From: Raillietiella orientalis
Lineage: Eukaryota
Assembly: GCA_036172245.1 (NCBI GenBank)
Contig: JAYWIR010000060.1
Coordinates: 620,001 to 665,423, forward strand
Length of the DNA stretch: 45,423 nucleotides
Reading direction: 5' to 3'
Position 1 is the stretch's first letter, and the number at the start of each line of letters is the position of its first letter. Shown here piece after piece: positions 1 to 40,968 of the stretch. A model generated the notes under the pieces. That model was not told the origin of the DNA and did no database searches. It saw only the letters and a program-made list of their open reading frames with translations. The translations under genes and the position numbers were made by a program.

Positions 1-81
1 CATGGCCGCCCTTCTGGGGTCCTACGACCTTGCGCTGCTGCAGGAGATCCACTTTATCTGTGCAGAACAAGCGCAAGAGAT
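1..81 (+). mobile_element. Family E non-LTR retrotransposon, N-terminal APE fragment (continues at 2357)
   Basis: Translates to MAALLGSYDLALLQEIHFICAEQAQEI (APE LQE-x-H motif). Ends in gcaagagat (73-81), which is duplicated at 2357-2365. Confidence 0.85.
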
Positions 82-2356
82 TTCTCGCCTGTCACGCAGG
101 GGCGTTCATTCCATATAACATAAACAAAAAAACAATTCTACAAAATAAACCAGCTGGGAACCGAACTCCCATCCAACGACTCAACAAGAATGAAGAGAAT
201 ATTGCTGGCACGCAGGCCAGAGTAACAATTTTGCGAACGGTGTAGGGGGGGCAGGGAACACAAAGAAACCAAAATAAAATAAAAACAATGAATAAGGAGG
301 AAGGAATAAGGGTCTTTGGAATCGCTCTGGAAGACACGGGGATAGAAGCATGGGCACCGGAAATTTTACCGAGCGTACGGGGACGGGGTATGGGTGGGCG
401 AGAGGTCGCAGGGGTCACCGGATTACGCCGTTCTCAAAGGTTTTTAAACCGGCGATGTATGCCGGTGATGTCCTCATTCACCTTGTCACGAAGATGAGAC
501 CACCTTGAAGCTTTCTCCATGAATTGAGCTGCAAGCAGGTGAGCCTCCCTTCGCTGCGCTGACAACTTCAGGGCGTAGCGGGCCTTCACGATGGCGCGAA
601 CGCAACACATGGTTGCGACAATCGCGCTAACCGAAAGTCCATTTCTGCTGAAGAAGCGCCGCAGCACATCAATGGCAGTGCCTCCTTGTGGCATGATGGC
701 CGAAGTGAGCCTTCGCCACAGTTCCCGGAGGTCACCGCAGTCCAGCAAAAGGTGCGGAAAAGACTCGATCTATCCGCACCTTAAACAGTTTGGCAAGGCA
801 GCTCCCCCGGAAACGATGCTTCGCTGCCTATTACAGTGTAATGCACAATGTAAAAACAGCAGCACATCTTGTTTCCACTTTAGGGGGAACACGGAGCTGT
901 CCAAACAAACGGGGGGAACCACTATCTCTACGGGGGGCACACTGAAATGTTCGCTCCACCGAAGCAGACCCTTCGCCCGATTCCGAGGAGTGGCGACTTG
1001 CACCAGATCCTTTGTCGTCCAGCTGCCGAGTAGCTTACTGACTCCCGCTATTTTGCAGGAGAACTTCCATTCCGCCGGTAGGCAACCGTCGTTGCTTGCC
1101 CTGAGGGCAGACAGCGCTGCGGCGAGTGGTGTGGCGGCCAGACGATCCGACAACTTCTTGTCCTGCATGACTTCGTCCATTTGATGACTGAGGAGAAGTC
1201 GCAGGCGTCGAAGATGTTCCAAGCGCGTTCCTTCGGAAGCTGCCCACGATGAAAAAGATTCCTGCCGCCATGCATCTATGTTCATGGGGCGGCATGAGAT
1301 CCAGCTTTGGGCTTCCAGCAGTGAGGACAGCTGCCTCAGCGGGAAGCCAAACCCTATTCTGGTGTGCCGAAAGTGGGGTAGCAACGAAAGCAGTCCCTCG
1401 CTTCCCGTGCAGCGCCTCAGGATAAGGCGTGCGGGTAAGCACCACGGCGTACACCACAGCTTGGCACAGAGCCGCAGCATGCGGAACTGCACCTGCAGTT
1501 CGATGCTGTTTAAGTCGAGGATGCCCAAGCCTGCATCCTGACGCGGCGCCACGAAATCTGTAAGTCTAACACGGGATCTTGCAGCGCCCCACAACGCTTT
1601 GCGTAGAAGACGCTGCGCCCAGACTTTGACTTCCTGGTAGGGTGGACAAACAAAAAACAGGGGGCGGAGGAGGGGGGCAACGAAGGTGTTCCAGATGTAG
1701 GCCCGTTCCGGCAAGACGAACTCGCCTCCTGAAAACGGGACAAGTGCACGTTCTGCCTTCCGAAGGCAGTCCGACCACGCTTCTATGATGCAGATGTCGC
1801 CCAACGGCACGCCAAGGTACCTGAGGTACCTGCCCGTGGGGATCCCCAGGTCGATCCAGTCGGACTGCCCCTCCCACGTCGCACCCACCGGAACAACCAT
1901 ACACTTACTCCTGTTAACGCTCACGCCCGCACCGCGACGAATCAACTCAAAGAAGCCTTCAAGCGATGTCGCCGGGGTGGACATGGGCAACAGGAGAAGC
2001 AGGTCGTCGGCATAGGCTGCCACGGCCGGCGTACCTGGACAGGAGCTCGGCAGGTTGGCTAGCGTCAGCCTGTAAGCCTCCAGCAGCAATTCAAAATCGA
2101 TGCTAAAGAGCAGTGGGCTTAAGCAGTCACCCTGCCTAATTCCTCGTCGTACCGGCACGCCGTACACGCGACAGCCACTGAAAACAATGGATGTAATCGC
2201 GTGGCGCCAGCAGGAGCGCAAGTACGCCAACAGGGATGCCGGAAGACCCAGACGTTCCAAAAGCTCAAGAAGAAGCTTTTGGTTCACGCAATCGAAAGCT
2301 TTGTGCAGATCGACTGCAACCGCCAAGGCTCCCGGTTTCTCCCTTTGCGTCCCTTT
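82..2356 (-). mobile_element. Family C element, copy C1, 5'-truncated (RT C-terminal half, zinc finger, 3' UTR)
   Basis: RT motifs DLHKAFD, GIRQGDCLSPLLF and AYADD; CLRC...HLLLDC zinc finger; T-rich 3' UTR with terminal hairpin; flanked by a 9-bp TSD gcaagagat. Confidence 0.9.
434..2356 (-). pseudogene. C1 ORF2, partial: reverse transcriptase and CCHC zinc finger, with in-frame TAG at 770-772
   Basis: ORFs 770..2326 and 434..748 are in the same frame; YADD motif present. Confidence 0.85.
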
Positions 2357-3666
2357 GCAAGAGATCGAACGGATCTACGAAGGGAGGCTGTGGTACAGGT
2401 GTGGGAGACCGAAAAGTTGCGGTGTCGCCTACCTGTTTCGGCCAGCCGTCGAGGCCGCTGCTCGGGGTGTGCGGTTCGACGATCACGGTCGTGTCGGCCA
2501 GCTGACTCTCAGGTGGTCCGTCACGATCGATCTGATCGTCACGAACGTGTACGCGCCGCTCGGTGCGTACACGTTCGTGACCAGGAGGGAGAGGAAAGAG
2601 TTTTTCCTTGCCCTCCGGCGAGACTGGCTGACCGAAGCAGGCGTGCGAAATGCCCATCTGGTTGCAGGCGATTTCAACGTTCGCCTGAAATTAGATGGGC
2701 AGAATCCCAAGCGTGACCTGGTCAACGAGGTGTGCATGGCGGTGCACACCTGTAATTTGTTGGCCAGTGCACTGGGGATGAAAGACAGCATTAACCACGT
2801 GTTTCTTGACGAGCACCTGTGCCCTCGCGTGGGCAGGCGCGGCAAGTTACCGTGCGAGCTGTCCGACCATCGCCCTCTAGTCCTCGAGATCCATCCGCGC
2901 GACAGGGGCCCCCCCTCGTCAGCGTGGCGTCTCCCAAGGGACTGGCTGAAGCTCCCGGACGCGGCAAAACATCTCCGCACGTTCATGTGGAGCTTCAGGC
3001 TGCAAACACTCCAGGATTGGGACCGCTTCAAGCAGTCGGTCCAGGAGTTCTGCGACCAGTTCCCTCTGCACCGCCTACCTACGGGTTTTGGGACCGGGGT
3101 CCGTAACGAACGAGCCTACCTGCAGGCCCGTCGTTAGGACTGGACCCCCGACATCCGCAGGCTGGCGGAATACAAAGCGGGAGCAAAGAGGCAAGCCTGG
3201 CAGTCCGGATCGGCCAGCTTGCTGGACGATCAGGACCAGGAGCACTCGGCACCCGCCGAAATCCGCGGCCTGCTGCGGAGTTACTACTCCTCCCTGTATG
3301 CCTGGGCACCTCCGGAGAGGAATCTCTTACGACTCCTGCTTCCGGAAGGCGCTCCAGCGATGGGGGAGGAGGAGAGAAAGACCCTCGAGGAGCCTTTCAC
3401 GATGGACGAGATCCTCTCGGCCATCGAAAAGCTCAAGACGCGAAAGGCTCCAGGGGAGGACGGCCTGCCCGCGGAGTTTTACCAAACTTTCGCGGCTGAG
3501 CTTATCCCCCTGGTACAGCAACTGACCTTGCTGATACGCGAAACAGGTGACGTTCCCGCCTCGTTTCGTTCGGCAAAGGTGGGGCTCCTCCCTAAGGGAA
3601 AAGATCTGAGGAGCATGAACAACTGGCGTCCCATCACAATAGTGAATGCGGACGCCTAGTTGCTAG
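2357..3666 (+). mobile_element. Family E element continued: rest of APE, linker and RT N-terminus (degenerate)
   Basis: NVYAP, AGDFN, SDH, KAPGEDGLPAEFY and NWRPITIVNADA motifs; stops at 3135 and 3657; cut at 3666 by element F. Confidence 0.88.
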
Positions 3667-7519: not shown

Positions 7520-10500
7520 CACCTGGGCTCGCCTGTCGCCGTCGAATCCGCGTGGCCAGTTGGAACGTCAACGGGCTGCGCGACGACGGCAACAGACGAG
7601 ATACGGCCGACACCCTGCGTGAGTTCGACCTGGCCCTGCTGCAGGAGATCCACGTTATCACCGCGGCAGACGCCCAGGAGATCGAGACGATCGCAGGGGG
7701 TCGGTTGTATTGGCGATGCGGCGCCCGCAACACCTGTGGGGTCGCGTTTTTCGTGAAGCCGGCCATTGACGCTGCCGTGAAGGGCGTACGCTTCGATGAC
7801 GACGGTCGGGTCGGTCAGCTGATTCTCAGCTGGTCCGACTCGATCGAATTGATCGTCACGAACGTGTACGCCCCAAGCGGGAAAGGGGGATACAGCGACC
7901 GTACCAGGTTGCTGGAAACCCTGAAGCGCGACTGGCTGGCCGATACGAACGTGCGGAAGGCACACCTGATAGCTGGGGACTTTAATCTCCGTCTGCTGTC
8001 AGGTGAGCCCGAAGCACAAGAACGCACGGCCAACGAGTTGTGCGCTGCCATGCGCACGCGCAACTTGTTGACGGACGCGGAGGGAATGGACCGCAGCATC
8101 GACCACTTCTTCCTGGATGTCGACCTGTGCTCGCGGGTCGGCAAACGGGGAAAAGTTGCGTCGACGCTGTCGGACCATTCCAGGATCATCGCCAAGGTTT
8201 GCTCGCGCGACAAAGGACCCCCGTCCAGGGCGTGGCGGCTGCCTGGGGACTGGACGCGGCTCTCAGGTGCGAAAGAACACCTTCGCGAATTCCTGAGAGG
8301 CGTCACCCTCCGCAGTCTCCAAGACTGGGACCTCTTCAAGGCCTCGTTCCGCGAGTTCTGCGAGGAGTTTCCCCTGCACCACCTGCCTCCCGGATTCGGG
8401 GAGGGGGCTCGGAACCATCGGGCTTATCTACAGGCCCGCCGGTACGAGAGGACCCCGAATGTCCGTCGCCTCGCGGAATATCGAGCCGGGGCCGAACGCC
8501 AAGCCTGGCAATCCGGGTCGGCCAGCTTGCAGGACGACCAGGGCCGGGAGCGATCCGCCCCACCCGCGATCAGGCACCTCGTGCGACGTTATTACGCCTT
8601 CCTCTACGCTAGGGCACCCCCAGAGCGGAACGCCTCGCGGCTCCTGCTCCCGGATAGGGCCCCGGCAATAAAGGAGGAGGAGAGGATCAGCCTCGACGAG
8701 CCTTTTTCTACCGGTGAAATTCTCGCCGGTATTAAAAGGCTCAACAGGCGAAATGCGCCAGGGGAGGACGGCCTGCCTGCAAAATTCTTTCAATGTTTCG
8801 CGGCAGAGCTGGCCACCCTGGTGCTTCAGTTGACCGGGCTGATCCGAGACGAAGGCGACGTTCCCTCCTCGTTTCGGTCAGCCCGTGTGAGGCTCCTCCC
8901 GAAGGGAGGAGACCTGAGATCCCTAGGCAACTGGCGTCCGATCACAATTGTGAATACGGACGCCAAGCTGATCGCTGGACTGTGGGCTTCGCGTCTAGGA
9001 CAGGTGGCAGACTCCATAATTAGCCCGGAGCAGACATACGCTGTTCCCGGGCGAAGTATGGATGCCAACCTGTTCTTCGCGAGCACATGGTTCCATGTGC
9101 AACGCTGCCTGAATGAAACTGGAGGAAAGATTGGCAACCCCACTTTGGGGCCGCCAGCTGGACTGGGAATGGACACCCGGGCTGGGAAGGGGGCCCTAGC
9201 GATCGCGGTCGATCTCCATAAGGCGTTCGACTGCGTTGACCAGGAGCTACTGTTGGAGCTTTTGGGTCGCATGGGCTTCCCACCCTCCCTTCTCTCCTTC
9301 CTGCGCTCCTGCTGGCGCAACGCCATAATTAACATCTGCTTTTCCAGCCAACAGTTGTACGGCGTGCCGGTGCGGCGGGACATACGGCAGGGCGATAGCC
9401 TCAGTCCCCTGCTCTTTAGCACCTACTTTGAGTTGGTGCTGAGAGCGTACAGGGTGACTTTGGCTGCCCTGCCCAGCTCGTGCCCCGGCACGCCCGCCGT
9501 TGCAGCATACGCCGACGACCTTCTGCTCATGTTGCCCATGTCCGCCCCGGCAGCCGCAGTCGAGGATTTCTTCGACCTGCTAAGTCGTGGGACTGGACTG
9601 CGGGTAAACAAGGCGAAGTCGTCGGTCGTACCGGTGGGTGCGACGTGGGTCGGACGGCCTGACTGGATCCGCTTCGGGATCCCCGCGGCCAGGTACCTGA
9701 AGTACCTAGGTGTCCCGTTGGGGGACTTCTGCCTCGCAGAAGCCTGGTCAGGTCGTCTCCAAAACGTAGAGTTGGCAATCGGCCCGTTCCTGGAAGGCAA
9801 GTTCCTTCTGCCGGAACGGGCCGCGGTGTGGAACGCCTTCGCGGCTCCCATCCTCCGCTTTCTGCTTTTTGTGTGATCCGTCCCCCGTGACATTAAAAAG
9901 AGGACAAAAGACCTACTCCGCATCGCCCTCTGGGGCAGCGGGAAGCCACGTGTGCCTCTGGATGATTTATGCGCTCCTCGTCGGGACGGCGGTCTAGGCC
10001 TCCTGACGCTAAAGCGCCTGGAAATACAGCTGCGATGGCGCACCCTCGCCATCGCAGCAAAGTCATGGAGCACCTTTTGGTGCGCTCCGGCCCGAATCCT
10101 CGCCAGCCGTGTGTCCAGGACGCAAGGACTCGCGTCGTACCTTCTGTGCTTCGGCAGGAAGGTGAGAAGATGCGGCCTTCTTCTTGGACGCATGGGAGCC
10201 CTGGTCAGAGACAACGGCTGGACGGTATGCAGCCCCGTCAACTCCTCGGCCTGGCTGGAGGAATCAGTTGCGACGTGGGCCAAGCTGAACCTCCAGACTT
10301 CCCCGGAATGGAACCGCCTGCGATTCGGCCCCAACGCCCGCTGCACACTGCGGACTACTCTGGAGTGTCCCGCCAATAGCGCGTGGGCGGAGACCACCCC
10401 TCTAGCTTCGACCCTGCCCTTCCTCCGGAGGGCTTTAACCAGCGGCCGCAAGCCAAAGTGGCAAGTCTCCTGCCGAATCGCAGGCAAGGAGAAGAAGATG

Positions 10501-11323: not shown

Positions 11324-12212
11324 CCCCAAATCCCGCAGGTAGGCGATGCAGGGGGAACTGATCGCAGAACTCCTGGACCGACCGCTTGAAGCGGTCCCAG
11401 TCCTGAAGTGTCTGCATCCTGAAGCTCCGAATAAACGCGCGGAGGTGCTCCGCCGCATCGGAAAACTTTAGCCTGTCCCCTGGCAGACGCCACGCTGACG
11501 AGGGGGGGGCCTTGTCGCGCAAACGCACTTCGAACATGATCCGACCATGGTCCGACAGCTCGCATGGTACCTTGCCGCGCCTGCCCACCCGAGAGCATAG
11601 GTGCTGATCAAGGTACACGTGATCGATGCTGCTTTCCATGGCCGTGTCCCCGGCCAACAAGTTGCGTGTGTTCATTTCTGCGCACAACTCGTTGACGCGG
11701 TCGTTCAGTGTATCCGGCGCACCTGAAAGCAGGCGCAGGTTGAAATCACCTGCGATCAGGTGCGCTTTGCGAACTCCTGCATCGGTCAGCCAATCGCGTC
11801 TCAGGGCAAGGTAGAATTCCCTTCTTGCCTTCGCCCTCAACGCGTTGATTCCGCTAGGAGCGTATAGGTTGGTGACGACCGGGTCGATAGAGTCGGACCA
11901 GCTGAGAGTCAGCTGACCGACGCGACCTGCGTCATCGAACCGAACGTCCTTTATTGCGGTCTCGATGGCTGGCCGAAGCAGGAAGGCGACACCGCTTGAT
12001 TTCGCCGTGCCACAACGCCACAACAGCCGCCCACCCGAGATCCGTTCGATCTCCCGGGCTTGATCTGCGGAGATCACGTGGATCTCCTGCAGCAAAACCA
12101 GGTCGAAGGATGCCAGGGTGGCGGCCACGTCACGCCTCTTGCCGTCGTCGCTTAGCCCGTTCACGTTCCAACAGGCGATCAGAAGACGACGGCGAGAGGC
12201 GATTTCCGGCAT
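11324..12212 (-). pseudogene. B1 ORF2 N-terminus (APE endonuclease), truncated by insertion
   Basis: MPEIASRRRLLIACWNVNG...NLYAP...GDFN...IDH...SDH. The ATG overlaps the ORF1 stop (TAATG, 12210-12214). Confidence 0.88.
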
Positions 12213-17100: not shown

Positions 17101-17749
17101 ATGGTACCTTGCCGCGCCTGCCCACCCGAGAGCATAGGTGCTGATCAAGGTACACGTGATCGATGCTGCTTTCCATAACCGTGTCCCCGGCCAACAAGTT
17201 GCGCGTGTTCATTTCTGCGCACAACTCGTTGACGCGGTCGTTCAGTATATCCGGCGCACCTGAAAGCAGGCGCAGGTTGAAATCACCTGCGATCAGGTGC
17301 GCTTTGCGAACTCCTGCATCGGTCAGCCAGTCGCGTCTCAGGGCAAAGTAGAATTCCCTTCTTGCCTTCGCCTTCAACGCGTTATTTCTTCTAGGAGCGT
17401 ATAGGTTGGTGACGACCAGGTCGATAGAGTCGGACCAGCTGAGAGTCAGCTGACCGACGCGACCTGCGTCATCGAACCGAACGTCCTTTATTGCGGTCTC
17501 GATGGCTGGTTGAAGCAGGAAGGCGACACCGCTTGATTTCGCGGTGCCGCAACGCCACAACAGCCGCCCACCCGAGATCCGTTCGATCTCCCGGGCTTGA
17601 TCTGCGGAGATCACGTGGATCTCCTGCAGCAGCACCAGGTCGAAGGATGCCAGGGTGGCGGCCACGTCACGCCTCTTGCCGTCGTCGCTTAGCCCGTTCA
17701 CGTTCCAACAGGCGATCAGAAGACGACGGCGAGAGGCGATTCCCGGCAT
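14168..17749 (-). CDS. B2 ORF2: APE, RT and zinc finger; open for 1141 aa, then TGG->TAG at 14324-14326 (1193 aa if repaired)
   Basis: All APE and RT motifs including SAYADD. The first Cys of the zinc finger is Ser (PNSVRCGERE). The frame continues to TGA at 14168-14170. Confidence 0.9.
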
Positions 17750-19407
17750 TATGGCTGGGAAAGTGGCGACGCGGCACCTGCCGCGAAGCAGGTGTACGAA
17801 AGGTCCATCGGTACGAGGACCATCGGAACGAGGACGGAGGCCTCTTCAGGCGCCTGGGGTACCTGTTCGGCCTCCATCCTCACCATCCCCTCCGTGTCCG
17901 AGCGTGGAATTCTCTCGGGCGACGGGTCCCGGGAGTTTCCCACGCTCATGGCTCCCTCGCTACCGGAAGCCATCTCTTCCCCTTCGTCGGGGGAGACGAT
18001 CTTCCGGGGCATTGTGGACTTTCGTCCTGCCTTTTTGCGGGGTGCCGCGGAGATGGATGCTGTGTTTCCGGCCTTCACCTCGGGGTCGGAAGTGGCCGAC
18101 TCCTGAGGCGAAGCTGGACGCCTGACGGCCTTCTTGCCAGCCTTGGGGGCAACCGGCTGCAACGAGGCAGCTAGCTCCTCCGCGGCGCGCTCGAAGGCGA
18201 CGTCATCGAGCGTGGGCTCGATGATGGACGCCGCCGCCTCGCTCCCCTCCTTGTTGACTTTGTCAACGGAGGGTTGAGCAGGGGCAGCAGCGAGTTCTTT
18301 AGCGCCGCATTCGTCGATGGCGGGAATCCGCTCTACAACGACGCAGCAGCTTTTAATTTTATCGCGGCGCAGAGCGGATTCGCTCCGTTTCGCCACGTTC
18401 TTTCCCTTCTTATGGGAGTTTTTCTTGGGGTCGACCTTCTGCCATTCTGGCTGTTGACCCTCGCCCTCGACCTTTCCGGCGTCTTTCGCCGAAGTCTCGG
18501 GGCTGGCCTTCGCCTTGGTGGCGGAGGTGACCTCCGTAGCAGCAGCACGAGCTGCCAGCTTCTTTCTCTTCTTTGCCGCGCGCTTTCTCGCGTTTTTCGC
18601 GGACACGACGCGGACTGTGTTTTGGGGGCACACCAGACGGGTGTGCCCCGCTTGTTTGCATTGCTGGCACTGCACGCTCGGACACCTCATTTTAAGGTGA
18701 CCAAAGCTGCTGCAGCAGCCGCAAAACTTGGGTTTCCCCACGTACCACACGTCAACGGATTCACCGTTGACGGTGAGTTTGTAAGGAATCTCACATCCCT
18801 CGCGAACCGTCACTCGCGCTGCACCCAGGCCGCCAAGCAACCCGTCGTAATCGACAAAAGGAGTAGGCTTGCCCCACAGCGCGTGGACAGTTGCGAATTT
18901 TTCCAATTTGTTCCGGACGGCCTCCTTCGTCACCCGGAACGTGATACCGGTCAGGTGAATGATCACCGACCGGTCTTCTGTTATTGGGAGAAGCCTCCGG
19001 CTGCCCATACTTACGGGGGTTCGCAGAAGTCTCTGCGCAAGAGTTGCCTCCTTGCAGATAACTTCCACAAATTGACCCCCGCTTCTGACGGACATAGCCA
19101 GAAGCTCCTCTTTTTGTACACCGAGTGCGCGCATCGCCTGCGAAAAGGCGCGCGCGTTCTTGGGAGAATATAAACCGCCTACCTTATATAGAAGGGGTGA
19201 GTTATACCCCTCCTCCAGGTAAGCGCGCATTTCCGCCATAGCCGCTGGGGTAGGTGCCGCAAGCACGGCGTTCCAAGCCCTGGGTAGGGCCGGGGGCGCA
19301 TCCGTGCTGGCGGGAGCCTCCACTGATGCGGGAGCCCCCACCTCCATCTCCTCCGGGGGCAATGAGGTCATCACTCCCGGATCCTCACCGGTGGTGGTAT
19401 CAGGCAT
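17749..19407 (-). CDS. B2 ORF1: gag-like protein with two CCHC knuckles, 552 aa
   Basis: CGCCSSFGHLKMRC and CQQCKQAGHTRLVC. The stop overlaps the ORF2 ATG (TAATG, 17747-17751). Confidence 0.92.
   Translation of the reverse strand: MPDTTTGEDPGVMTSLPPEEMEVGAPASVEAPASTDAPPALPRAWNAVLAAPTPAAMAEMRAYLEEGYNSPLLYKVGGLYSPKNARAFSQAMRALGVQKEELLAMSVRSGGQFVEVICKEATLAQRLLRTPVSMGSRRLLPITEDRSVIIHLTGITFRVTKEAVRNKLEKFATVHALWGKPTPFVDYDGLLGGLGAARVTVREGCEIPYKLTVNGESVDVWYVGKPKFCGCCSSFGHLKMRCPSVQCQQCKQAGHTRLVCPQNTVRVVSAKNARKRAAKKRKKLAARAAATEVTSATKAKASPETSAKDAGKVEGEGQQPEWQKVDPKKNSHKKGKNVAKRSESALRRDKIKSCCVVVERIPAIDECGAKELAAAPAQPSVDKVNKEGSEAAASIIEPTLDDVAFERAAEELAASLQPVAPKAGKKAVRRPASPQESATSDPEVKAGNTASISAAPRKKAGRKSTMPRKIVSPDEGEEMASGSEGAMSVGNSRDPSPERIPRSDTEGMVRMEAEQVPQAPEEASVLVPMVLVPMDLSYTCFAAGAASPLSQP
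17806..17835. repeat. 15-bp tandem duplication (VLVPM twice) in the ORF1 C-terminus
   Basis: catcggtacgaggac-catcggaacgaggac. Present in B2 and B3, single copy in B1. Confidence 0.8.
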
Positions 19408-22400: not shown

Positions 22401-22507
22401 TGCGTCCCAGCGTCCTGGCGGGTCCAGTGTATATGGCCGTGAGCAGGGCCTTGTACCGCGGATCTAGAGTTTTACCAATAGACGCCCCGGGCGTACCCGG
22501 GTGTAAA
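19489..22507 (+). mobile_element. Family A' element, copy 1: linker, RT, zinc finger and 3' UTR (degenerate); host of B1/B2
   Basis: Frameshifted ORF2 pieces 19702..20904, 20895..21683 and 21912..; YADD; ends ...ccgggcgtacccgggtgtaaa. Confidence 0.88.
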
Positions 22508-22520
22508 CCTCCAGGCCAGA

Positions 22521-28213: not shown

Positions 28214-28936
28214 AGGGCACAGGTGCTCGTCTTAAGACACGTGGTCAATGCTGCCTACCATCCCCGGTGCACTGGTCAACAAATTACAGGTGTGGAACGC
28301 CATGCACACGTCGTTGACCAGGTCACGCCCGGGATTCTACCCATCTGGTTTCAGGAGAACTTCGAAATCGCCTGCAACCAGATGGGCATTTCGCACGCGT
28401 GTCTCGGTCAACCAGTCGCGATGGAGGGCAAGGAAAATTTCTTTCCTAGCCCTCCTGTTCGTCAGGTCCGCTCTGCTCGGGTCGTAAACGTTCGTGACGA
28501 TCAAGTCGATCGAGTCGAACCACCTGAGAGTAAGCTGGACGACACGACCGTGATCGTCGAACCGCACGCCCCAAGTTGCGGCCTCGACGTCTGGCCGAAG
28601 CAGGTAGGAGACACCGCAAGTTTTCGGTCTCCCACACCTGTACCACAGCCGCCCATCGGAGATGCGTTGGATCTCTTGCGCTTGTTCTGCAGAGATCACG
28701 TGGATCTCTTGCAGTAGCGCAAGGTCGTACGACTGCAGAAGGGCGGCCATGTCTCGTCTCCGAAGGCGTCTGTTAAGCCGTTCACGTACCAAACGGCGAT
28801 GCGCAGGCGGAGGCGGTAGGAGATTCCTGGCATTTCTGCTGGGAACATTAAGGTGTTTGGAAGCCCGCCTCTTGCGAGGCGGGCAGGATGTCCATGGTGA
28901 TTTCGGCCTTCTCAGGCACCTAAGACACCTGATCGG
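28214..28936 (-). mobile_element. Family E-like fragment: ORF1 C-terminus and APE
   Basis: DMAALLQSYDLALLQEIH...RLWYRCGRPK matches the E host at 1-81 and from 2357. Confidence 0.82.
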
Positions 28937-31202: not shown

Positions 31203-31770
31203 CCCCCAAGGCTGGCAAGAAGGCCGTAAGGCGTCCGGCATCCCCTCAGGAGTTGGCCACTTCCGACCCCAAGGTGAAGGCCGAAAACACAGCATCCATC
31301 TCCGCGGCACCCCGCAAAAAGGCAGGACGAAAGTCCACAATGCCCGGAAGATCGTCTCCCCCTACGAAGGGGAAGAGATGCCTTCCGGTAGCGAGGGTGC
31401 CATGAGCGTAGGAAACTCCCTGGACCCGTCACCCGAGAGAATTCTACGCTTGGACACGGAGAGGATGGTAAGGATGGAGGCCGAACAGGTACCCCAGGTG
31501 CCTGAAGAGGCCTTCGTCCTCGTTCCGATGGTCCTCGTACCGATGGACCTTTCCTACACCTGCCCCGCGGCAGGTGCCCAAACGCAACTTTCCCAGCCAT
31601 AATGCCGGGAATCCCCTCTCGCCGTCGTCTTCTGATCGCCTGTTGCGAACGGAACTGAACGGGCTAAGCGAAGACGGCAAGAGGCGTGACGTGGCCGCCA
31701 CCCTGGCATCCTTCGAGCTGGTGCTGTTGCAGGAGATCCACGTGATCTCCGCAGATCAAGCCCGGGAGAT
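31203..31770 (+). mobile_element. Family B fragment B3: ORF1 C-terminus and APE start, cut by C2
   Basis: PKAGKKAVRRPASPQE...; TAATG at 31600-31604; LLQEIHVISADQAREI, then the junction. Confidence 0.88.
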
Positions 31771-32123
31771 TTCTCACCCGGTGACGCCGGGGCGTTTATT
31801 CCATATAACATAACGAAAAAAAGCAATTATACAAAATAAACCAGTTGGGAACCAAACTCCCAACCGACGACTGAACAAGAATGAAGAGAATATTGCTGGC
31901 ACGCAGGCCAGAGTAACAGTTTCTTGAACGGTGTGGGGGGGTGGGAAACACAAAGAAACCAAAATAAAATAAAAAAAATGAATAAGGAGGACGGGATAAG
32001 GGTCTTTGGGATCGCTCTGGAAGACACGGGGATAAAAGCATGGGCACCGGAAATTTTACCGACCGAACGGGGACGGGGTATGGGTGGGCGAGAGGTCGCA
32101 GGGGTCACCGGATTACGCCGTTC

Positions 32124-35100
32124 TCAAAGGTGTGTAAACCGGCGATGTATGCCGGTGATGTCCTGATTCACCTTGTCACGAAGATGAGACCACCTTGAAG
32201 CCTTCTCCATGAATTGAGCTCCAAGCAGGTGAGCCTCCCTTCGCTGCGATGACAACTCCAGGGCGTAGCGGGCCTTCACGATGGCGCGAACGCAACACAT
32301 GGTTGCATCAATCGCGCTAACCGAAAGTCCATTTCTGCTGAAGAAGCGCCGCAGCACATCAATGGCAGTGCCTCCTTGTGGCATGATGGCCGAAGTGAGT
32401 CTTCGCCACAGTTCCCGGAGGTCACCGCAGTCCAGCAAAAGGTGCGGAAAAGACTCGATCTATCCGCACCTTAAACAGTTTGGCAAGGCAGCTCCCCCGG
32501 AAACGATGCTTCGCTGCCTATTACAGTGTAATGCACAATGTAAAAACAGCAGCACATCTTGTTTCCACTTTAGGGGGAACACGGAGCTGTCCAAACAAAC
32601 GGGGGGAACCACTATCTCTACGGGGGGCACACTGAAATGTTCGCGCCACCGAAGCAGACCCTTCGCCCAATTCCGAGGAGTGGCGACTTGCACCAGATCC
32701 TTTGTCGTCCAGCTGCCGAGGAGCTTACTGACTCCCGCTATTTTGCAGGAGAACTTCCATTCCGCCGGTAGGCAACCGTCGTTGCTTGCCCTGAAAGCAG
32801 ACAGCGCTGCGGCGAGTGGTGTGGCGGCCAGACGATCCGACAACTTCTTGTCCTGCATGACTTCGTCCATTTGATGACTGAGGAGAAGTCGCAGGCGTCG
32901 AAGATGTTCCAAGCGCGTTCCTTCGGAATCTGCCCACGATGAAAAAGATTCCTGCCGTCATGCATCTATGTTCATGGGGCGGCAGGAGATCCAGCTTTGG
33001 GCTTCCAGCAGTGAGGACAGCTGCCTCAGCGGGAAGCCAAACCCTATTCTGGTGTGCCGAAAGTGGGGTAGCAACGAAAGCAGTCCCTCGCTTCCCGTGC
33101 AGCGCCTCAGTATAAGGCGTGCGGGTAAGCGCCACGGCGTACACCACAGCTTGGCACAGAGCCGCAGCATGCGGAACTGCACCTGCAGTTCGATGCTGTT
33201 TAAGTCGAGGATGCCCAAGCCTGCATCCTGGCGCCGCGCCACCAAGTCTTTAAGTCTAACACGGGATCTTGCAGCGCCCCACAACGCTTTGCGTAGAAGG
33301 CGCTGCGCCCAGACTTTGACTTCCTGGGGAGGTGGACAAACAAAAAACAGGGGGCGGAGGAGGGGGACAACGAAGGTGTTCCAGATGCTGGCCCGTTCCG
33401 GCAAGACGAACTCGCCTCCTGAAAACGGGACAAGTGCACGTTCTGCCTTCCGAAGGCAGTCCGACCACGCTTCTATGATGCAGATGTCGCCCAACGGCAC
33501 GCCAAGGTACCTGAGGTACCTGCCCGTGGGGATCCCCAGGTCGATCCAGTCGGACTGCCCCTCCCACGTCGCACCCACCGGAACGACCATACACTTACTC
33601 CTGTTAACGCTCACGCCGGCACCGCGACGAATCAACCCAAAGAAGCCTTCAGGCGATGTCGCCGGGGTGGACATGGGCAACAGGAGAAGCAGGTCGTCGG
33701 CATAGGCTGCCACGGCCGGCGTACCTGGACAGGAGCTCGGCAGGTTGGCTAGCGTCAGCCTGTAAGCCTCCAGCAGCAATTCAAAATAGATGCTAAAGAG
33801 CAGTGGGCTTAAGCAGTCACCCTGCCTAATTCCACGTCGTACCGGCACGCCGTACACGCGACAGCCACTGAAAACAATGGATGTAATCGCGTGGCGCCAG
33901 CAGGAGCGCAAGTAGGACTGGAGCACGGCCGGGAAACCCATGCGTTCCAGGAGCTCCAAAAGGAGTTCCTGGTCGACGCAGTCGAATGCTTTGTGCAAGT
34001 CGACCGCGACTGAAAAGGCTCCCGCCGAGTCCCCCCCACCCTCTCTTCGATATTGCTGGTCAGAGGTGAGCGCAAGACTCCCTTGACCTTCCTGGGCAAC
34101 GCGTTGTCGCAACTGCCACCATGTGCTGGCGAGGAGCAGGTTGGACTCCATGCTTCGTCCGGGAACAGCATAAGTCTGCTCCAAACTGATCACGGAAGCG
34201 GCCACCCGCCCCAAGCGCTCAACCCACAACTTGGCATACAACTTCGCGTCCGCATTCACTACTGTGATGGGACGCCAGTTGCCAATGTTGCGTAAGTCTC
34301 CTGACTTCGGCAGGATACGTACTTTTGCTGACCGAAACAACGCGGGAACTTCGCCGTGTTCGCGGATCAGCGTACTTAACCTGAGCACCAGGGGGGTCAG
34401 CTCTGGTGCGAAGTGTTTGTAGAACTCCTCGGGCAGGCCGTCCTCCCCTGGTGCCTTCCTTTTCTTAAGCCTGCTGATGGCGGAGACGACCTCCACCATC
34501 GTGAACGGTTCGGCGAACCTGAAAGGATCCTCCTCCTTGAGCGCGGGGAGGCCATCCGGCAGCAGGCGCTGCGCGAAATGGCGCTCCGGTGTTAACGGCG
34601 CGTACAAGGAGGAATAAAACTTCCGCACGATGCCGCTCACCTGAGCTGGGCTGGAGCGTTCTTGGCCCTGATGGTCCAGCAAGCAGGCCGAGCCTGACTT
34701 CCAGGCCTGCCTCTCCGCCTCAGCTTTGAATTCCGCCAAGCGTCGGACGTCGGGACGCCTGGAATACCGGCGGGCCTGTAGGTAGGCCCGCTCGTTCTTG
34801 ACCTTATCGCCGAAGCCCGGCGGAAGACGTTCCAGGGGAAACTGGTCGCAAAACTCGCGGACTGAGCACTTCATTTCGTCCCAGTCCGCGAGCGTCTCAA
34901 GATGGAATCCTCGCAGGAAACAGCGTAGATGTTCCGCCGCTCCTGCGAGGCGCAACCAGTCCCCTGGCAGGCGCCACGTTTTCAAGGGAGGGCCCTTATT
35001 CCGCGGATGGAACTCGAGCACGAGCCGTCGATGGTCGGACAGCTCTGCCGGGAGCGTTCCTCGAGATCCCACCCGCGTGCACAGGTGGTTGTCGAGGAAC

Positions 35101-35699
35101 ATGTGATCGATGTTCCGATCTCTCCCGGCATCACCGGCCAACAAGTTGCGCGCATTCATTGCTGCGCACAACTCGTTGACCAGCTGTGCTCGTCTGTTGG
35201 GTGCACCTGCTAGCAGGCGGAGATTGAAATCGCCCGCGATGAGGTGCGTCCGCCGTACGCTTGCTTCAGCCAGCCAGTCTCGCCGCAGGGATTCGAGGAA
35301 CGCAGTGCGTTCCTCGGCCCCGTGATTGCTCACTGGCGCGTATATGTTCGTCACAACGAGGTCGATCGATTCGGAACACTTGAGAACAAGCTGTCCAACT
35401 CGACCGTCCCAGTCGAAGCGAACGCTACGGAGAGAGTTTTCGACTGCCGGCTTCAGCAGAAAGGCCACTCCGCACGAGTAGCCTGTTCCGTTCCTCCACA
35501 GCAGCCGCCCTCCTGTGATTCTTTCGAAATCCTGGCCTGCTTCTGTTGTGAGCACGTGAGTCTCTTGCAGTAGGGCCAGGTCGAAGTTTCGCAGAATGGC
35601 GGCTACGTCTCGCCTCTTCCCGTCGCTGCTCAACCCGTTGACGTTCCAACAGGTTATTCGCAAGCGGCTAGAGGAGGCGAGTCCACGCAATGGTGTTGT
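32124..35699 (-). pseudogene. C2 ORF2: APE, RT and zinc finger, stops at 32958-32960 and 32460-32462
   Basis: ORFs 32958..35690, 32460..32912 and 32124..32438 are in frame; CWNVNG, LQETH, GDFN, SDH, AYADD. Confidence 0.9.
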
Positions 35700-36349
35700 T
35701 ATGGTGGGGTGGAAGAAACCGCCTCCTGTTCAGAAGACGGGTGGTCCGGGTCCATGTCGTTGGAGTGTTCAGGAGCATCGCTCACTCCGTCGGCCGTGAA
35801 CTGTGTTTACAGTTGGTAAAGGATGCTCTCAGGCACGGAGTCGCATTGTGCAACGCACATGGACTCTTCCTCGCTGTCAGATGCCATTTCAACCTCTTCC
35901 TGAGAGGTGACAGCACGCCTACGAGCACCTGTTGCATTTTTATGTTTTCTTTTCGGCAAGCCAACGGAGGGCGAGTTCCCGCTTTCGGCGTCAGACTCGG
36001 AGGTTTCCGGGTCTTTTGCCGTAGCCGGGCGTCGAACGGCCTTCTTCTCGGCCTTGACGGGCTGCCTCAGGAAGGCAGCCAACTCTTCCGCGGCTTGCGC
36101 GAAGTTTGCATCAGAGATGCGTTCCACGTCATCACGGATTTCGCCGCCTGTTGGCGAGTCGGGTGACGTAACAACCGATTCGATAGCGGCAACTGGCGCG
36201 CTATCGTTCGGAACCGCAGCGGCTGAGCTTTCGCTCGCCGCTACAACGCTCCCAGTGGACTGGACTGGAACAACCATTTCGATCGCGGCAACGTGTGCCG
36301 CGCTATCGATCGCGACCGTAGCGATTTCGCCGCACGAAGCCGGAAACGC
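35699..36349 (-). pseudogene. C2 ORF1 C-terminal part
   Basis: FAQAAEELAA..KKAVRRP motif shared with the other ORF1s. Internal TAA at 35807-35809; probable true stop at 35699-35701. Confidence 0.75.
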
Positions 36350-39291
36350 TTTTTCACCCGGATATGCCGGCGCATTTATTCAAAAGAATAAAATTACAAT
36401 GGATTGTCGCGTGTTGAACCCAAGGGTCCATCACTACAAAACAGCTTGGTATTTACCGGCGCGATGCCGGAGAGGTCCATCCGATGCGCGGGGGTTGGGA
36501 AAGAAAAAAAAAAACAAACAAACAAATAGTTGAAGTATGGGAGGGAAGAAATGTTTCGGGAATGGGAGGGCAGGGAGGGGATCACCGTGCGCGCGGATAG
36601 GTCCTCTAGATCCTATTCAGGATCCGTACAAGCTGAGTCCTCTCTGCGCCCAAGTGGCGCCACTTGCAGACGTCTCGGACGAATAGGCGAGTGAACCGTA
36701 AGGCGTTCTCGGTTGGCTGACGTCTTCTTCTGGTGGCGTTCCAAGCCGCCACGATCCCTCGAATGCAGCAGAGGACTGCTACAGAAGAGGGGGAGGACAA
36801 GCCGTCACTACGGAAGAGGAGCCTAAAAACGTCCTTAGGGCCGCATCCGTGCAAGTCCAGGATCGCCGGGAGACGATCCCATAAAGGGCGGATGGCACTG
36901 CACTCGATGAGAAGGTGGAAGAAGGTCTCTTTTTCCCCGCACCGGTCACAATAAGGATCCACGGCCCCCCGGGTTGTGTGATGAAGGCGTGCTTTGAATG
37001 GAAGTCCCCAGAGGACCACAAGCAACTCCACATCCTGCCATTTCAGGGGGAGGGATCCACTGTTCCAGGACGCCGGGGGCCACTTCATCTCCTCCGGAGA
37101 TGATACGAGTAGCTCGCCCCAGCGTCGAATTACGTTGGGCGGGACTCTCGGCGTCGCAGCGTCCGCTAGCTGCCGAGATGTCCACGCCATAATCGTTTGT
37201 GTCCTGCCTCCAATGGTGCAGGACACGTACCATTTCCCAAGCTCCCTACTGTCCCTGGCGTCGATGAGGAAGAACAGCACTGGGGCAAGGGGGGTTATCA
37301 AAGCCCACATGCGCTATTCGTGGGACTGCACGATCTCCTGCAGTTTCCAGCGGGCGTGCCTTTGCAGGCAAGTGTTTCTTGTGCCCGCCGAAACGTGGAT
37401 CTTTACCCAGGTGGACACTGACTCGTGCAGCCATGCAGAGTAGTTCCCTGGGCGGCAGGAGATCTAGGCGTTCTCCCGTACCGCAACTTCCATGCGACGC
37501 AGGAATAAGCAGCCGTGTGCTTCTCTGCGGTCGCGTGCCAGCAGAAACGACAAAAGTCCGTCGCATCCGTAGGCTCGTTGGGCCAGGAGGCGTGCTGGAA
37601 CGCACCAAGGCGTGTCCCACAATTCCGCTGCAAGAGCGAGAGTCCTGAACCTAAGTTGTAGTTCAATGCGCTCCAGCGTAAGAACGCCTAGTCCTCCGTC
37701 CTTACGTGGAGCGCACAAGTCTTTGAGCCTCACACGGGACCTCCCTTTGCCCCAAAGGACTGTCCTCAGGAGGCCCGCTGCTCGTTTTCGGATAAAATAA
37801 GGGGCGAGGCAAACAAAAAGTAGGGGGCGAAGGAGGAAAGCCGCAAACGCGTTCCACACCGCGGCCCGTTCCTGCAAGTAGAACTTGCCTTCTTGGAACG
37901 GACCGATCGCCAACGCTGCCTTTTGGAGACGGTCGGACAGGGCTTCTGCTGCGCAGAAGTCCCCCAACGGTACGCCGAGGTACTTGAAGCACCTGGCCGT
38001 GAAGATCCCCAAGCGGATCCAGTCCGACCGTCCAGCCCACGCCGAACCGACGAAGACCATGGACGACTTCGCCCTATTCACCTCCAGACCCGTCCCGCAA
38101 CGCAGCAACTCGATGAAGTCCTCGAGTGCACTCGCCGGGGTGGACCCGGGAAGCAGCAGCAGAAGATCGTCTGCATAGGCCGACACGGCAGGCGTGCCGG
38201 CACACGAGCTCGGCAGGGCTGCCAGAGTTACCCTGGATGCCCTCAGCACCAGCTCAAAGTAGATGCTGAAGAGCAAGGGGCTTAGGCTGTCACCCTGCCG
38301 GATGCCGCGGCGTACGGGCACGCCGTACACGTGCCGGCCGCTGAAACCGATATTGATTGACGCGTTGCGCCAGCAGGAGCGCAGGTAAGATTGAAGCACG
38401 GCAGGGAAACCCATGCGTTCCAGGAGCTCCAGAAGGAGATCCTGGTCGACGCAGTCGAATGCTTTGTACAAATCGACCGCGACGGCAAAGGCTCCCGCCG
38501 AGTCCATCCCACCCTCTGCCCGATCTTCTTGGTCAGAGGGGGGCGCGAGGCTCCCTTGACCGTCCTGTGCAACGCGTTGTCGCAACTGCCACCATGAGCT
38601 GGCGAGGAGCAGGTTGGCCTCCATGGTTCGTCCGGGAACAGCATAGGTCTGCTCGGGACTCACCACGGAAGCGGCCACCCGCCCCAAACGCTCAGCCCAC
38701 AACTTGGCATACAACTTTGCGTCCGCATTCACTACTGTGATGGGACGCCAGTTGCCAATGTTGCGTAAGTCTCCTGACTTCGGCAGGAGACGTACTTTTG
38801 CTGACCGGAACGAGGCGGGAACTTCGCCGTGTTCGCGGATCAGCGTACTTAACCTGAGCACCAGGGGGGCCAGCTCTGGCGCGAAGTGTTTGTAAAACTC
38901 CGCGGGCAGGCCGTCCTCCCCTGGTGCCTTCCTTCTCTTGAGCCTGTTGATGGCGGAGAAGATCTCCGCCATCGTGAACGGTTCCGCCAATCTGGAACGG
39001 TCCTCCTCCTTGAGCGCGGGAGCGCCATCCGGCAGCAGGCGCTGCGCGAAATGGCGCTCAGGAGTGAGTGGCGCGTACAAGGAGGAATAAAAGTCCCGCA
39101 CGATGCGGCTTACCTGGGCTGGGCTGGAGCGTTCTTGGCCCTGATGATCCAGCAGGCAGGCCGAGCCTGACTGCCAGGCCTGCCTCTCCGCCTCAGCCTT
39201 GAATTCAGCCAGGCGACGGTCGTCGGGACGCCGGGAATAACGGCGCGCCTGGAGGTACGCCCGCTCGTTCCTGACACCCTCACCGAAGCCC
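36350..39291 (-). mobile_element. Family D-like element, copy D2: linker, RT, zinc finger and 3' UTR; host of A3/A4
   Basis: ORF 37464..39101 with SAYADD; CDRCGEKETFFHLLIEC; ends aataaatgcgccggcatatccgggtgaaaaa; broken at GFGE. Confidence 0.9.
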
Positions 39292-40839
39292 TTTCCTGGA
39301 AGGCAAGTTTCACTTGCCGGAACGGGCCGCGGTTTGGAACGCCTTCGCGGCCCCCGTACTCCGCCCCTTGCTTTTTGTTTGCCCCGCCCCCGTGGAATCG
39401 AAAAAGCGGACGAAGGACCTCCTCCGCATAGCTCTTTGGGGCAAGGGGAGGCCCCGAGTCCCTTTGAAGGACTTGTGCGCTCCGCGTCGGGACGGCGGTC
39501 TCAGCATCCTGACGCTGGAGCGCGTGGAAATCCAGCTGCGATGGCGGACCCTCGCCATCGCAGCAAAGATGTGGAGCACCGCTTGGTGCATTCCGGCCCG
39601 TCTCCTGGCCAGGCGTGTGTCCCGCTGCGAAGGACACGCATCGTTTCTCTTGTGCCCTGGCCGGAAGATTCGAAGATGCGGTCTACTGCTCGGCCGCATG
39701 GCAACCCTGGCAAAGGAGAACGACTGGATGGTTTGTGTCCCTGCCAACTCCTCCGCTTGGCTGAAAGAGACTGCTGGCACCTGGGCCAAGCTGAACCAGA
39801 GGTGCGAAGACCAGATGAACTGCCTGCGAGTCGGCTTTTACGCCCGCCGAACTCTCCGTGGAATACTTGAATTTCCACCGAGTTGCACGTGGGCGGAAGG
39901 CACACCCCTTGTTACGGCGATGCCCTTCCTCCAAAGGGCGCTTCACGAAAGCCGGAAGCCAAGGTGGCAAGTCTGCTGCCGTATCGCAGGCAGAGAGAAG
40001 ACGATGAGCGGCTGGACCATGGGAGAGTTGACAGATGCAACGACCCCTAGTATCCAGCCGCGTGGATTAAGAAGATGGGGCGAGCTGCTCGGCATTCGAT
40101 TGGATGACCTGAAGTGGCCCCCGGTTCTACTTGGATCCAGGATTCTTTCCCTGAAGTGGCAAGAATCGGCGCTTCTGTGGCTGCATTGGGGTCTACCCTG
40201 CAACGCGCGCCGCTTCCACTGGACGCGGGGAAGAGTAAATTCTGCGTGTGCCAGGTGTGGGGAGCGGGAGTCGCTCCCCCACCTCTTAGTTGAATGCCCT
40301 GCCGTCCGGATTCTTTGGAAACGTCTTCAAACGGCACTTGGGATACCGGATGCTGTCAACGGTGGATGTATCTTCAGTCTTTTCTTCGTGCGGGACGCCC
40401 TCAGTCCAGCTGCAGCCCTGGCAGCACTTTGCTTCATTCGTGGTATAGTGGCGGCCTGGAGTGATGCCGAAGATGAAGACTGCATCGTGAGGAATGTCAT
40501 CGAGTATGCTTCTCGCTTCCTGCAGAGAGCTACCCGATGGACCCATCTAGGAAGGATGAAAAAGGAACTAGAAGGCATCCTGCAAAGAATGGGCCCTCCC
40601 AGCAGTTTTCTGTGATCCCTTCCCGGCCCTCCAAACTTTTTTTTGTGGTTTGTTTTTCTCTTTTATTTTATTTTTGTGTTCTCCCCCATCCCCCTCCACT
40701 GCCCAGGAGAGCCACACCGAGCTGCGTCCCGGTGTCCCGGCAGTTCCGGTATTGCGTGGCCGTCAGTGGGGCCTTGTACCACGTTCTGTATTGACCGTTG
40801 AAATGTTTTTAATAAACGTCCCGGCGTATCCGGGTGGCA
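39292..40839 (+). mobile_element. Family A element, copy A3, 5'-truncated (open 433-aa ORF2 C-terminus and 3' UTR)
   Basis: ORF 39314..40615 with CARCGERESLPHLLVEC; TSD tcaccgaagccc(tt) at 39280 and 40840. Confidence 0.92.
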
Positions 40840-40968
40840 TCACCGAAGCCCTTCGCCGAAAGCCGGTGTGGGTGGACGTGTTTTTTGGTCGCTACGCCAG
40901 CGCTTGTCTGGGAAGCACCCGGAGTTTTTTAGTGTAGTCAGGTGTAAAGTGTGGGTCGTCGGTGTCCG

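Follow-up and report, generated by a model that had tools for sequence, protein, structure and literature searches.

Family C, an L1-group LINE in the genome of Raillietiella orientalis, inserts with few exceptions at one nucleotide within the APE endonuclease genes of its sister LINE families, or at a copy of that site. The pattern is real and well supported; elements that target other mobile DNA are already known, and family C is a sharper form of the same behaviour.

Insertion of family C at one site in sister endonuclease genes

The window, the whole 45,423-nucleotide stretch analysed, is the last 45 kb of a contig (C60 here) of a 210 Mb genome. It is filled by nested APE/RT non-LTR elements of several families, 65–95% alike. 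The letters A–K are labels of the present analysis, in which B, C and E match those of an earlier note on this DNA as far as possible. The features referred to are:

1–81, + strand: family E host, from the APE coding start to QAQE-I, ending in the target core GAGAT (77–81)
73–81, + strand: left copy of a 9-bp target-site duplication (TSD), gcaagagat
82–2354, − strand: C1, a 5'-truncated family C copy, 94.6% identical to the full-length reference over 8–2273
82–108, − strand: 3'-terminal motif of C; sister families carry a related form, a short inverted repeat and then a 3–4 nt family tail
2357–2365, + strand: right copy of the 9-bp TSD, gcaagagat again
2366–3665, + strand: host E ORF2 resuming in frame, up to an antisense family J copy at 3666, in the RT motif IVNADA
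7668–7684, + strand: A-type site, empty; the core is present, the upstream part differs, and the class is rarely used
12047–12068, − strand: B-type target site, empty
17584–17605, − strand: B-type target site, empty, in a near-complete B copy
28669–28690, − strand: E-type target site, empty
31203–31770, + strand: family B host, ORF1 end and APE start up to the target core, 93% identical to B at 17586–18149
31771–33914, − strand: C2, family C-derived part, 92–98% identical to the C reference until ~33,900 and 55–76% beyond
33915–36340, − strand: family D sequence (5' RT, APE, ORF1 end) fused in frame to C2, 84–97% identical to D at 37,781 onwards; motif LLQETH..AGQDF
42869–42885, + strand: H-type (A-like) site, empty

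Two junctions in the window, from which the earlier note had proposed targeting, were as it had described them. Positions 65–81 read gaacaagcgcaagagat, followed by ttctc at 82, and after the right copy of the 9-bp duplication the frame of host E resumes as ERIYEGRLWYRCG. The second junction, in host B, reads gatcaagcccgggagat up to 31770, again followed by ttctc. Both fall after LLQEIH, at the same codon and phase, with C opposite to the host, and the hosts are diverged as claimed, their flanks agreeing at 61 of 79 positions and the C parts at 96% over ~2.17 kb. C1 contains the 3' half of the RT, the C-terminal region, a T-rich 3' UTR and the fixed 3' end without poly(A); the two bases that come after it (2355–2356) are absent from both the C reference and the host. 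C2, on the other hand, is not a full C copy: a second TSD is absent from the window, and the sequence turns into family D at ~33,894–33,914, the crossover lying inside a shared 20-nt stretch in YLRSCWR. As C2 is a C/D chimera, the endonuclease in its frame is that of D, and the window holds no C endonuclease. The resulting open frame of 923 codons joins the D endonuclease to the C-terminal half of the C RT, and other in-frame or junctional chimeras were evident in the ORF list of the window.

The two window cases alone would be weak evidence. Copies of C were located across the genome by a DNA search (181 candidates, 40 of them scored) and by an exact 23-mer (71 matches); a script found at least 78 C 3' ends in the sequence retrieved, and the host class of each junction was assigned from 80 nt of flank. 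In 68 of these 78, the junction lies in a sister LINE APE gene, antisense, at one nucleotide, GAGAT^CG (codons QA[Q/R]E-I), which excludes chance. The hosts were E (28), B (26), E2 (10), F (1) and three A-like types (one each), seven types with 80-nt flanks that are 65–89% identical to one another. In eight further junctions, the flank is the 5' end of an earlier C, whose target copy served as the site, so that 76 of the 78 are at the APE site or its regenerated copy. The other two also end in GAGAT: one is at a GAGAT stretch in C's own RT region, the other, in unrelated DNA (contig C47), has the core GAGAT^CG and is flanked by a TSD of 15 bp. The proposed sequence-specific targeting therefore holds genome-wide, and copies of C scattered over unrelated sequences, which would have spoken against it, were not what the survey returned.

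Exact GAGAT precedes the junction in 72/78 cases, with one or two base differences in the remaining 6, and merging four identical pairs leaves 74 clusters. The 5' ends agree with this distribution: in a sample of 89 full-length ends (81 exact matches and 8 near ones), 85 run into a sister APE gene (76) or another C (9), and the other four are one duplicated off-target site, a single sequence in four identical copies starting with CG. No C junction (0/78) was at 28S rDNA or telomeric repeats, targets typical of the R1 clade. A target logo, the check that the earlier note had suggested, was built from the junctions; it mostly mirrors the conservation of two abundant hosts and not recognition.

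The earlier note had also held that insertion just downstream of the catalytic LQE-x-H motif disables the host endonuclease. The position is correct and ORF2 is split after ~55 codons, but the loss covers endonuclease and RT together, and closeness to the motif is not necessarily the purpose; the region of the motif may be just the sequence best conserved among the sister families.

Several junctions were unusual. The C72 junction was considered as a tandem behind a truncated copy; its flank matches the GAGAT-bearing stretch in the C RT, so it is either a tandem or an insertion at the internal core motif. Truncation and junction points of C cluster at reference positions 2235–2290 (window 2340–2356; C47:264816; C72:268054), a variable RT insert that holds an internal copy of the target core. 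At C74:59595, a truncated C has next to its 5' side a host target duplication of ~50 bp, which greatly exceeds the other TSDs in length. Two C 3' ends at C4:14754–16573 face each other 1.8 kb apart (pieces of 1.6 and 0.2 kb), one in E and one in B, and probably reflect a rearrangement.

Independence of the insertions and use of the available sites

Because host labels are scattered over the tree of C copies, the insertions appear to be mostly independent. The tree comprised 70 copies of at least 1.4 kb (8 shorter ones were left out); its bootstrap had not settled and many forks were open. On it, 29 host-label changes were counted, where 6 would be the fewest possible and shuffling gives a mean of 35.3, the slight host clustering being equalled by 1/200 shuffles, and the starred sister pairs occupy different hosts. 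Host-diagnostic bases persist to within 6–9 nt of the C 3' junction; at flank position −7, G was found in 25/26 B hosts and A in 38/38 E/E2 hosts. Truncated copies carry TSDs of their own, of 9, 15 and 16 bp. In three of 38 paired elements the host on one side differs from that on the other, a sign that copies do recombine, which can increase the scatter on the tree; together with the four identical pairs, these hybrid-flank elements show that duplication and recombination contribute some of the copies.

Full-length C measures 5.94 kb, with an ORF1 of 636 aa and an ORF2 of ~1,190 aa, and all 89 5' ends continue into an 11-nt target-like stretch. Where a single host type flanks C left and right (26 elements), this 11-mer was of that host's type in 12, of another host family's type in 10 and a mosaic in 4. 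The ten foreign-type tips were six of E/E2 type in B hosts, two of B type and one of E2 type in E hosts, and one of E2 type in F. Since B-type tips occur in E hosts, the 11-nt stretch comes down from the donor locus rather than being a constant component of the element. Donor-type tips fit the prediction of the annealing model as far as it is set out in the available portions of the R1 (PMC2718515) and R2 (PMC3774820) papers. A resemblance of the C 5' UTR to the target beyond the 11-mer was discarded, as 37% of shuffles score equally well. A search of the full-length C locus for ribozymes or RNA families (Rfam) returned five chance-level matches only (best E 0.48), and folds of the 5' UTR and 3' end were no more stable than those of shuffles (z between −1.1 and 0.2), so the 3' hairpin of C is only a shared motif.

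B/E/E2-type sites were filled in 64 cases and empty in 134, versus 3 filled and 115 empty for A/H-type sites (Fisher p = 8e-12), with occupancy overstated as filled sites were counted with mismatches allowed and empty ones as exact matches only. Many empty sites of both classes are on the same contigs. The core of A-type sites is complete and their differences lie at −12 to −16; their rare use implies that more than the core matters, or that RNA pairing does. In C's own APE gene, the homologous place reads GCCGAAAT^CG, with GAA in place of the hosts' GAG (the same glutamate) and further differences upstream, and none of the 48 copies spanning that site was interrupted there. The GAA may reflect either selected immunity or drift. 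The family's own sequence was used only through the terminal target copy (eight cases) and once at the internal core motif.

Two sister families were sampled as controls, both samples being biased to large contigs. J-type ends (the first 30 of 95 matches) were at the RT motif NADAK in 10/30 and in non-LINE DNA in 14/30, and A-type ends (the first 30 of 285) were at a GFG site past the APE domain in 7/30. The J-type preference, antisense at IVNADAK, extends over several sister families and has its window example at 3666. A- and K-type elements favour GFG codons just past the APE domain of B, D and others (window 11324, 27703, 39288–40851 and 5660), the element at 39288–40851 having an 11-bp TSD and then the 5' end of the next element. 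At six loci on chromosome arms, very short A-type insertions (~20–30 bp, the terminal motif only) lie between TSD-like repeats.

The family C endonuclease and the choice of target

The C ORF2 protein (P0001) matched APE (PF03372, E 5.7e-11) and RT (PF00078, E 1.4e-19) domains, and all seven catalytic or structural APE residues are present (N15, E42, Y116, D153, N155, D196 and H221). Its nearest solved structure is L1 ORF2p (E 1e-42, versus 1e-14 for R2), and the 636-aa ORF1 carries a zinc knuckle (PF00098). By these features and by its 5' truncations with TSDs, C is an L1-group APE non-LTR retrotransposon. A CxxC...H...C pattern is visible in the C reference copy; PF13966, present on many of the nearest relatives, had no match on P0001. 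Families A and I and four database rows were left out of the RT tree, either by choice or because the anchor motif was missing. In this tree, C, B, D, H, K and G form a starred branch of their own (100/99), and the nearest database relatives are unnamed. Relatives of the C protein outside this genome are at 27–33%, except for two unnamed fragments at 58–60%, and protein-atlas matches were to unnamed RT/APE clusters only. The consensus motifs of the relatives are presumably Tx1-like. The 18S gene of the genome (L197, 594–2426), which we take to be arthropod-like, has unusual changes near 1165–1215, in a normally invariant stretch.

The APE domains of C and its sisters are 49–57% identical. That of C (P0002), predicted from a 61-row alignment with pLDDT 90 (36 from the single sequence), matched L1-EN best, the top fold matches scoring Z 25–26 (Z 25.9, rmsd 2.3, 213 residues aligned). 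The spacing between N155 and D196 is 40 residues in C, 38 in four sisters and 36 in G, compared to 49–78 (median 60) in 104 database relatives and to 57 between N147 and D205 of L1 by the numbering of PMC1950540. C and its sisters are without ~20 residues at the region of the specificity hairpin of the L1, R1 and TRAS1 endonucleases, where the predicted C structure has a short helix instead of a hairpin (pLDDT 92–94 in that stretch). The hairpin has been described as common to LINE endonucleases (PMC1919474), and deletion of T192–S202 reduced L1 nicking to 10% and retrotransposition to 0 (PMC1950540). Thus, the modelled C endonuclease shares its fold and catalytic residues with that of human L1 (1VYB, 8SP5; PMC1950540) and differs from it in two ways: the stretch between the N147 and D205 equivalents is 17 residues shorter, a gap that spans the T192–S202 hairpin, and the target is G-rich, with no T-tract. 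Despite the loss of the hairpin, C and its sister families are, to judge from their sequences, plainly mobile.

Any mechanism has to account for the observed junction positions, orientation, TSDs, host preference, donor-type 5' tips, tandems and unused own site. That C inserts by site-specific TPRT of some kind, through protein reading or RNA pairing, is very likely; that its ORF2 protein is what recognises the sister APE sequence seems to us rather probable. The protein would recognise ~16–20 bp of sister APE coding sequence, including the upstream bases, and nick the host sense strand at GAGAT^CG. The 3' end released there would prime cDNA synthesis at the fixed 3' terminus of C and, with priming from the nicked sense strand, C would land antisense. 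A second nick 9–16 nt away would yield the TSDs of truncated copies. Full-length C RNA, from its presumed transcription start, would begin with the 11-nt target copy of the donor locus, the cDNA of which would anneal to the target overhang and prime the second strand; as a result of this annealing, the bases at the 5' junction would be of the donor type or a mosaic, and a usable target would be rebuilt, giving rise to tandem C–C arrays. Two points count against reading by the protein. The hairpin region is absent from the predicted structure, which would leave no account of how 16–20 bp are read, and sister families whose loop is just as short show much lower specificity (the 10/30 and 7/30 at modal sites given above).

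Alternatively, RNA pairing would be the main selector and the endonuclease would read only a short core (GAT^CG or less), an explanation that is possible but that we consider unlikely. Transcripts would read through into the downstream host flank, only nicks that pair with the read-through would become insertions, the overhang would also pair with the 5' 11-mer, and target choice would be inherited from the donor locus. The missing hairpin region, the invariant 3' end without poly(A) and the donor-type 5' tips, as flank sequence travelling in RNA, all fit this explanation; off-target sites share little past GAGAT^CG, and complementarity of the RNA 3' end is named as a possible extra factor in the Discussion of PMC1950540. 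However, the F, A-like and off-target insertions carry 3–6 mismatches in the 11 nt beside the nick. No donor bases were found at any C 3' junction, which is expected under both models and is non-decisive.

The remaining explanations place the specificity outside the integration step. Regional tethering to LINE-dense heterochromatin, combined with a short motif and with purging of insertions elsewhere, would be in keeping with the fact that 63/78 C copies are either on short contigs (<0.7 Mb) or no more than 120 kb from where a contig ends. The 13-mer GCSCRRGAGATCG occurs 577 times in the genome, many of them on large-contig arms, yet only two separate non-LINE sites were seen used. Tethering is very improbable, since the same arrays contain 115 A/H sites with the full core and only 3 insertions, purging cannot yield single-base precision, and looser sister families survive on the arms; it may nevertheless be a partial contributor. 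The earlier note had set aside segmental duplication, rightly, but inter-family gene conversion and regional targeting needed testing as well, and both fit poorly. Spread of a few old insertions by segmental duplication, by composite retrotransposition of host and C or by APE gene conversion between families could draw on the four identical pairs, the off-target site in four identical copies, the three hybrid-flank elements, the slight host clustering in the tree and C2, itself a chimera. It is scarcely credible and already largely refuted by host-diagnostic bases that reach so close to the 3' junction in hosts down to 65–70% alike, by truncations of unlike length with separate TSDs, by the clean 15-bp TSD of the C47 off-target copy and by the tandems.

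Whether recognition by protein or pairing by RNA prevails, C and its sisters form a natural series of related APE endonucleases, from loose to near-absolute target choice and all without the loop presumed to set specificity, which makes directly testable what else steers APE-type LINE integration, protein surface or RNA pairing. The family-diagnostic target bases are genetic evidence that the donor flank at the RNA 5' end is used at the 5' junction, evidence unavailable in uniform rDNA.

Relation to known systems and targeting among the families

Tx1 families are the closest parallel. In the available portions of PMC4494074, Tx1L targets Tx1D, the crocodilian Tx1-Mar targets Mariner-N4_AMi, Tx1-8_Crp and Tx1-4_AMi target LTR retrotransposons and Tx1-9_AMi targets Harbinger; the parts available of this and two other papers (PMC6719617, PMC4640811) describe Tx1 families that favour other transposons, LTR retrotransposons included. 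Like Tx1 as portrayed there (PMC4494074), C is an L1-group APE element with a mobile-element target and TSD-separated tandems, often antisense to the host, and the target preference that is a trait of the Tx1 clade is present in C in 76/78 junctions. Unlike Tx1, C targets autonomous sister LINEs, at one endonuclease codon across several families, leaves the homologous site in its own APE gene untouched and is in turn a target, of family G. It is also near-absolute in its specificity, whereas PMC4494074, in the part available, calls a family specific from 20% of flanks. In the open literature, outside Repbase and most subscription journals, no case was found of a LINE with sister-LINE endonuclease genes as its target; figures S3–S5 of PMC4494074 may list LINE-targeting Tx1 elements.

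With R1 and R2 of Drosophila, as far as the accessible text of PMC2718515 and PMC3774820 goes, C shares a fixed 3' junction, tandems through the 5' TSD (R1 tandems form by insertion into it; PMC2718515) and target sequence at the RNA 5' end that is annealed to prime the second strand. Their 28S target is uniform, whereas the targets of C differ by family, so that the donor of a 5' tip can be read. C is R1-like in tandem formation and 5' annealing only. Zepp of Coccomyxa/Chlorella is likewise a LINE in dense nested clusters, according to the available part of PMC3446292; Zepp nests in Zepp, whereas C goes into other families and not into its own homologous site.

Family G, a distant L1-group family of 5.6 kb with the same short endonuclease loop, interrupts C. 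Among the 49 C copies reaching mid-ORF1, 33 stop at one site, where G sits antisense with a 14-bp TSD. Genome-wide, 60/163 G 3' ends are at this site, which makes it a hot spot and not a case of strict specificity. The 5' ends of G vary (truncations and one inversion), so the insertions of G in C are at least partly separate events. An example is found at C60:597517–609082, besides ~30 other C copies, and a G variant with CCCTCGTGG in its 3' end seems commoner at the C ORF1 site. Family I (TAA tail) has its 3' ends at one site in B ORF1 (APKAGKK), in host orientation, in 6/6 rows outside the window; in the window, I is found at B ORF1 at 31203–31210 and 22500–22513.

Competition between transposon families is clearly written in the sequence. 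That C would be specialised in inactivating rival sister LINEs is a further step, and a doubtful one: C would cut conserved endonuclease codons while being immune by a synonymous change, within a chain in which G targets C, C targets B and E, and I targets B, and, the hairpin being lost, the RNA-borne flank would act as a heritable, reprogrammable guide. An unoccupied target and the junction of G with C were both present among the contigs of one DNA sequencing run; this run may be the source sample itself, and that unoccupied site is not necessarily orthologous. A family with a CGAAAT loop (161 ends genome-wide) had two junctions at the RT motif AVDLxKAFD (C26:1005473 and C13:2516075).
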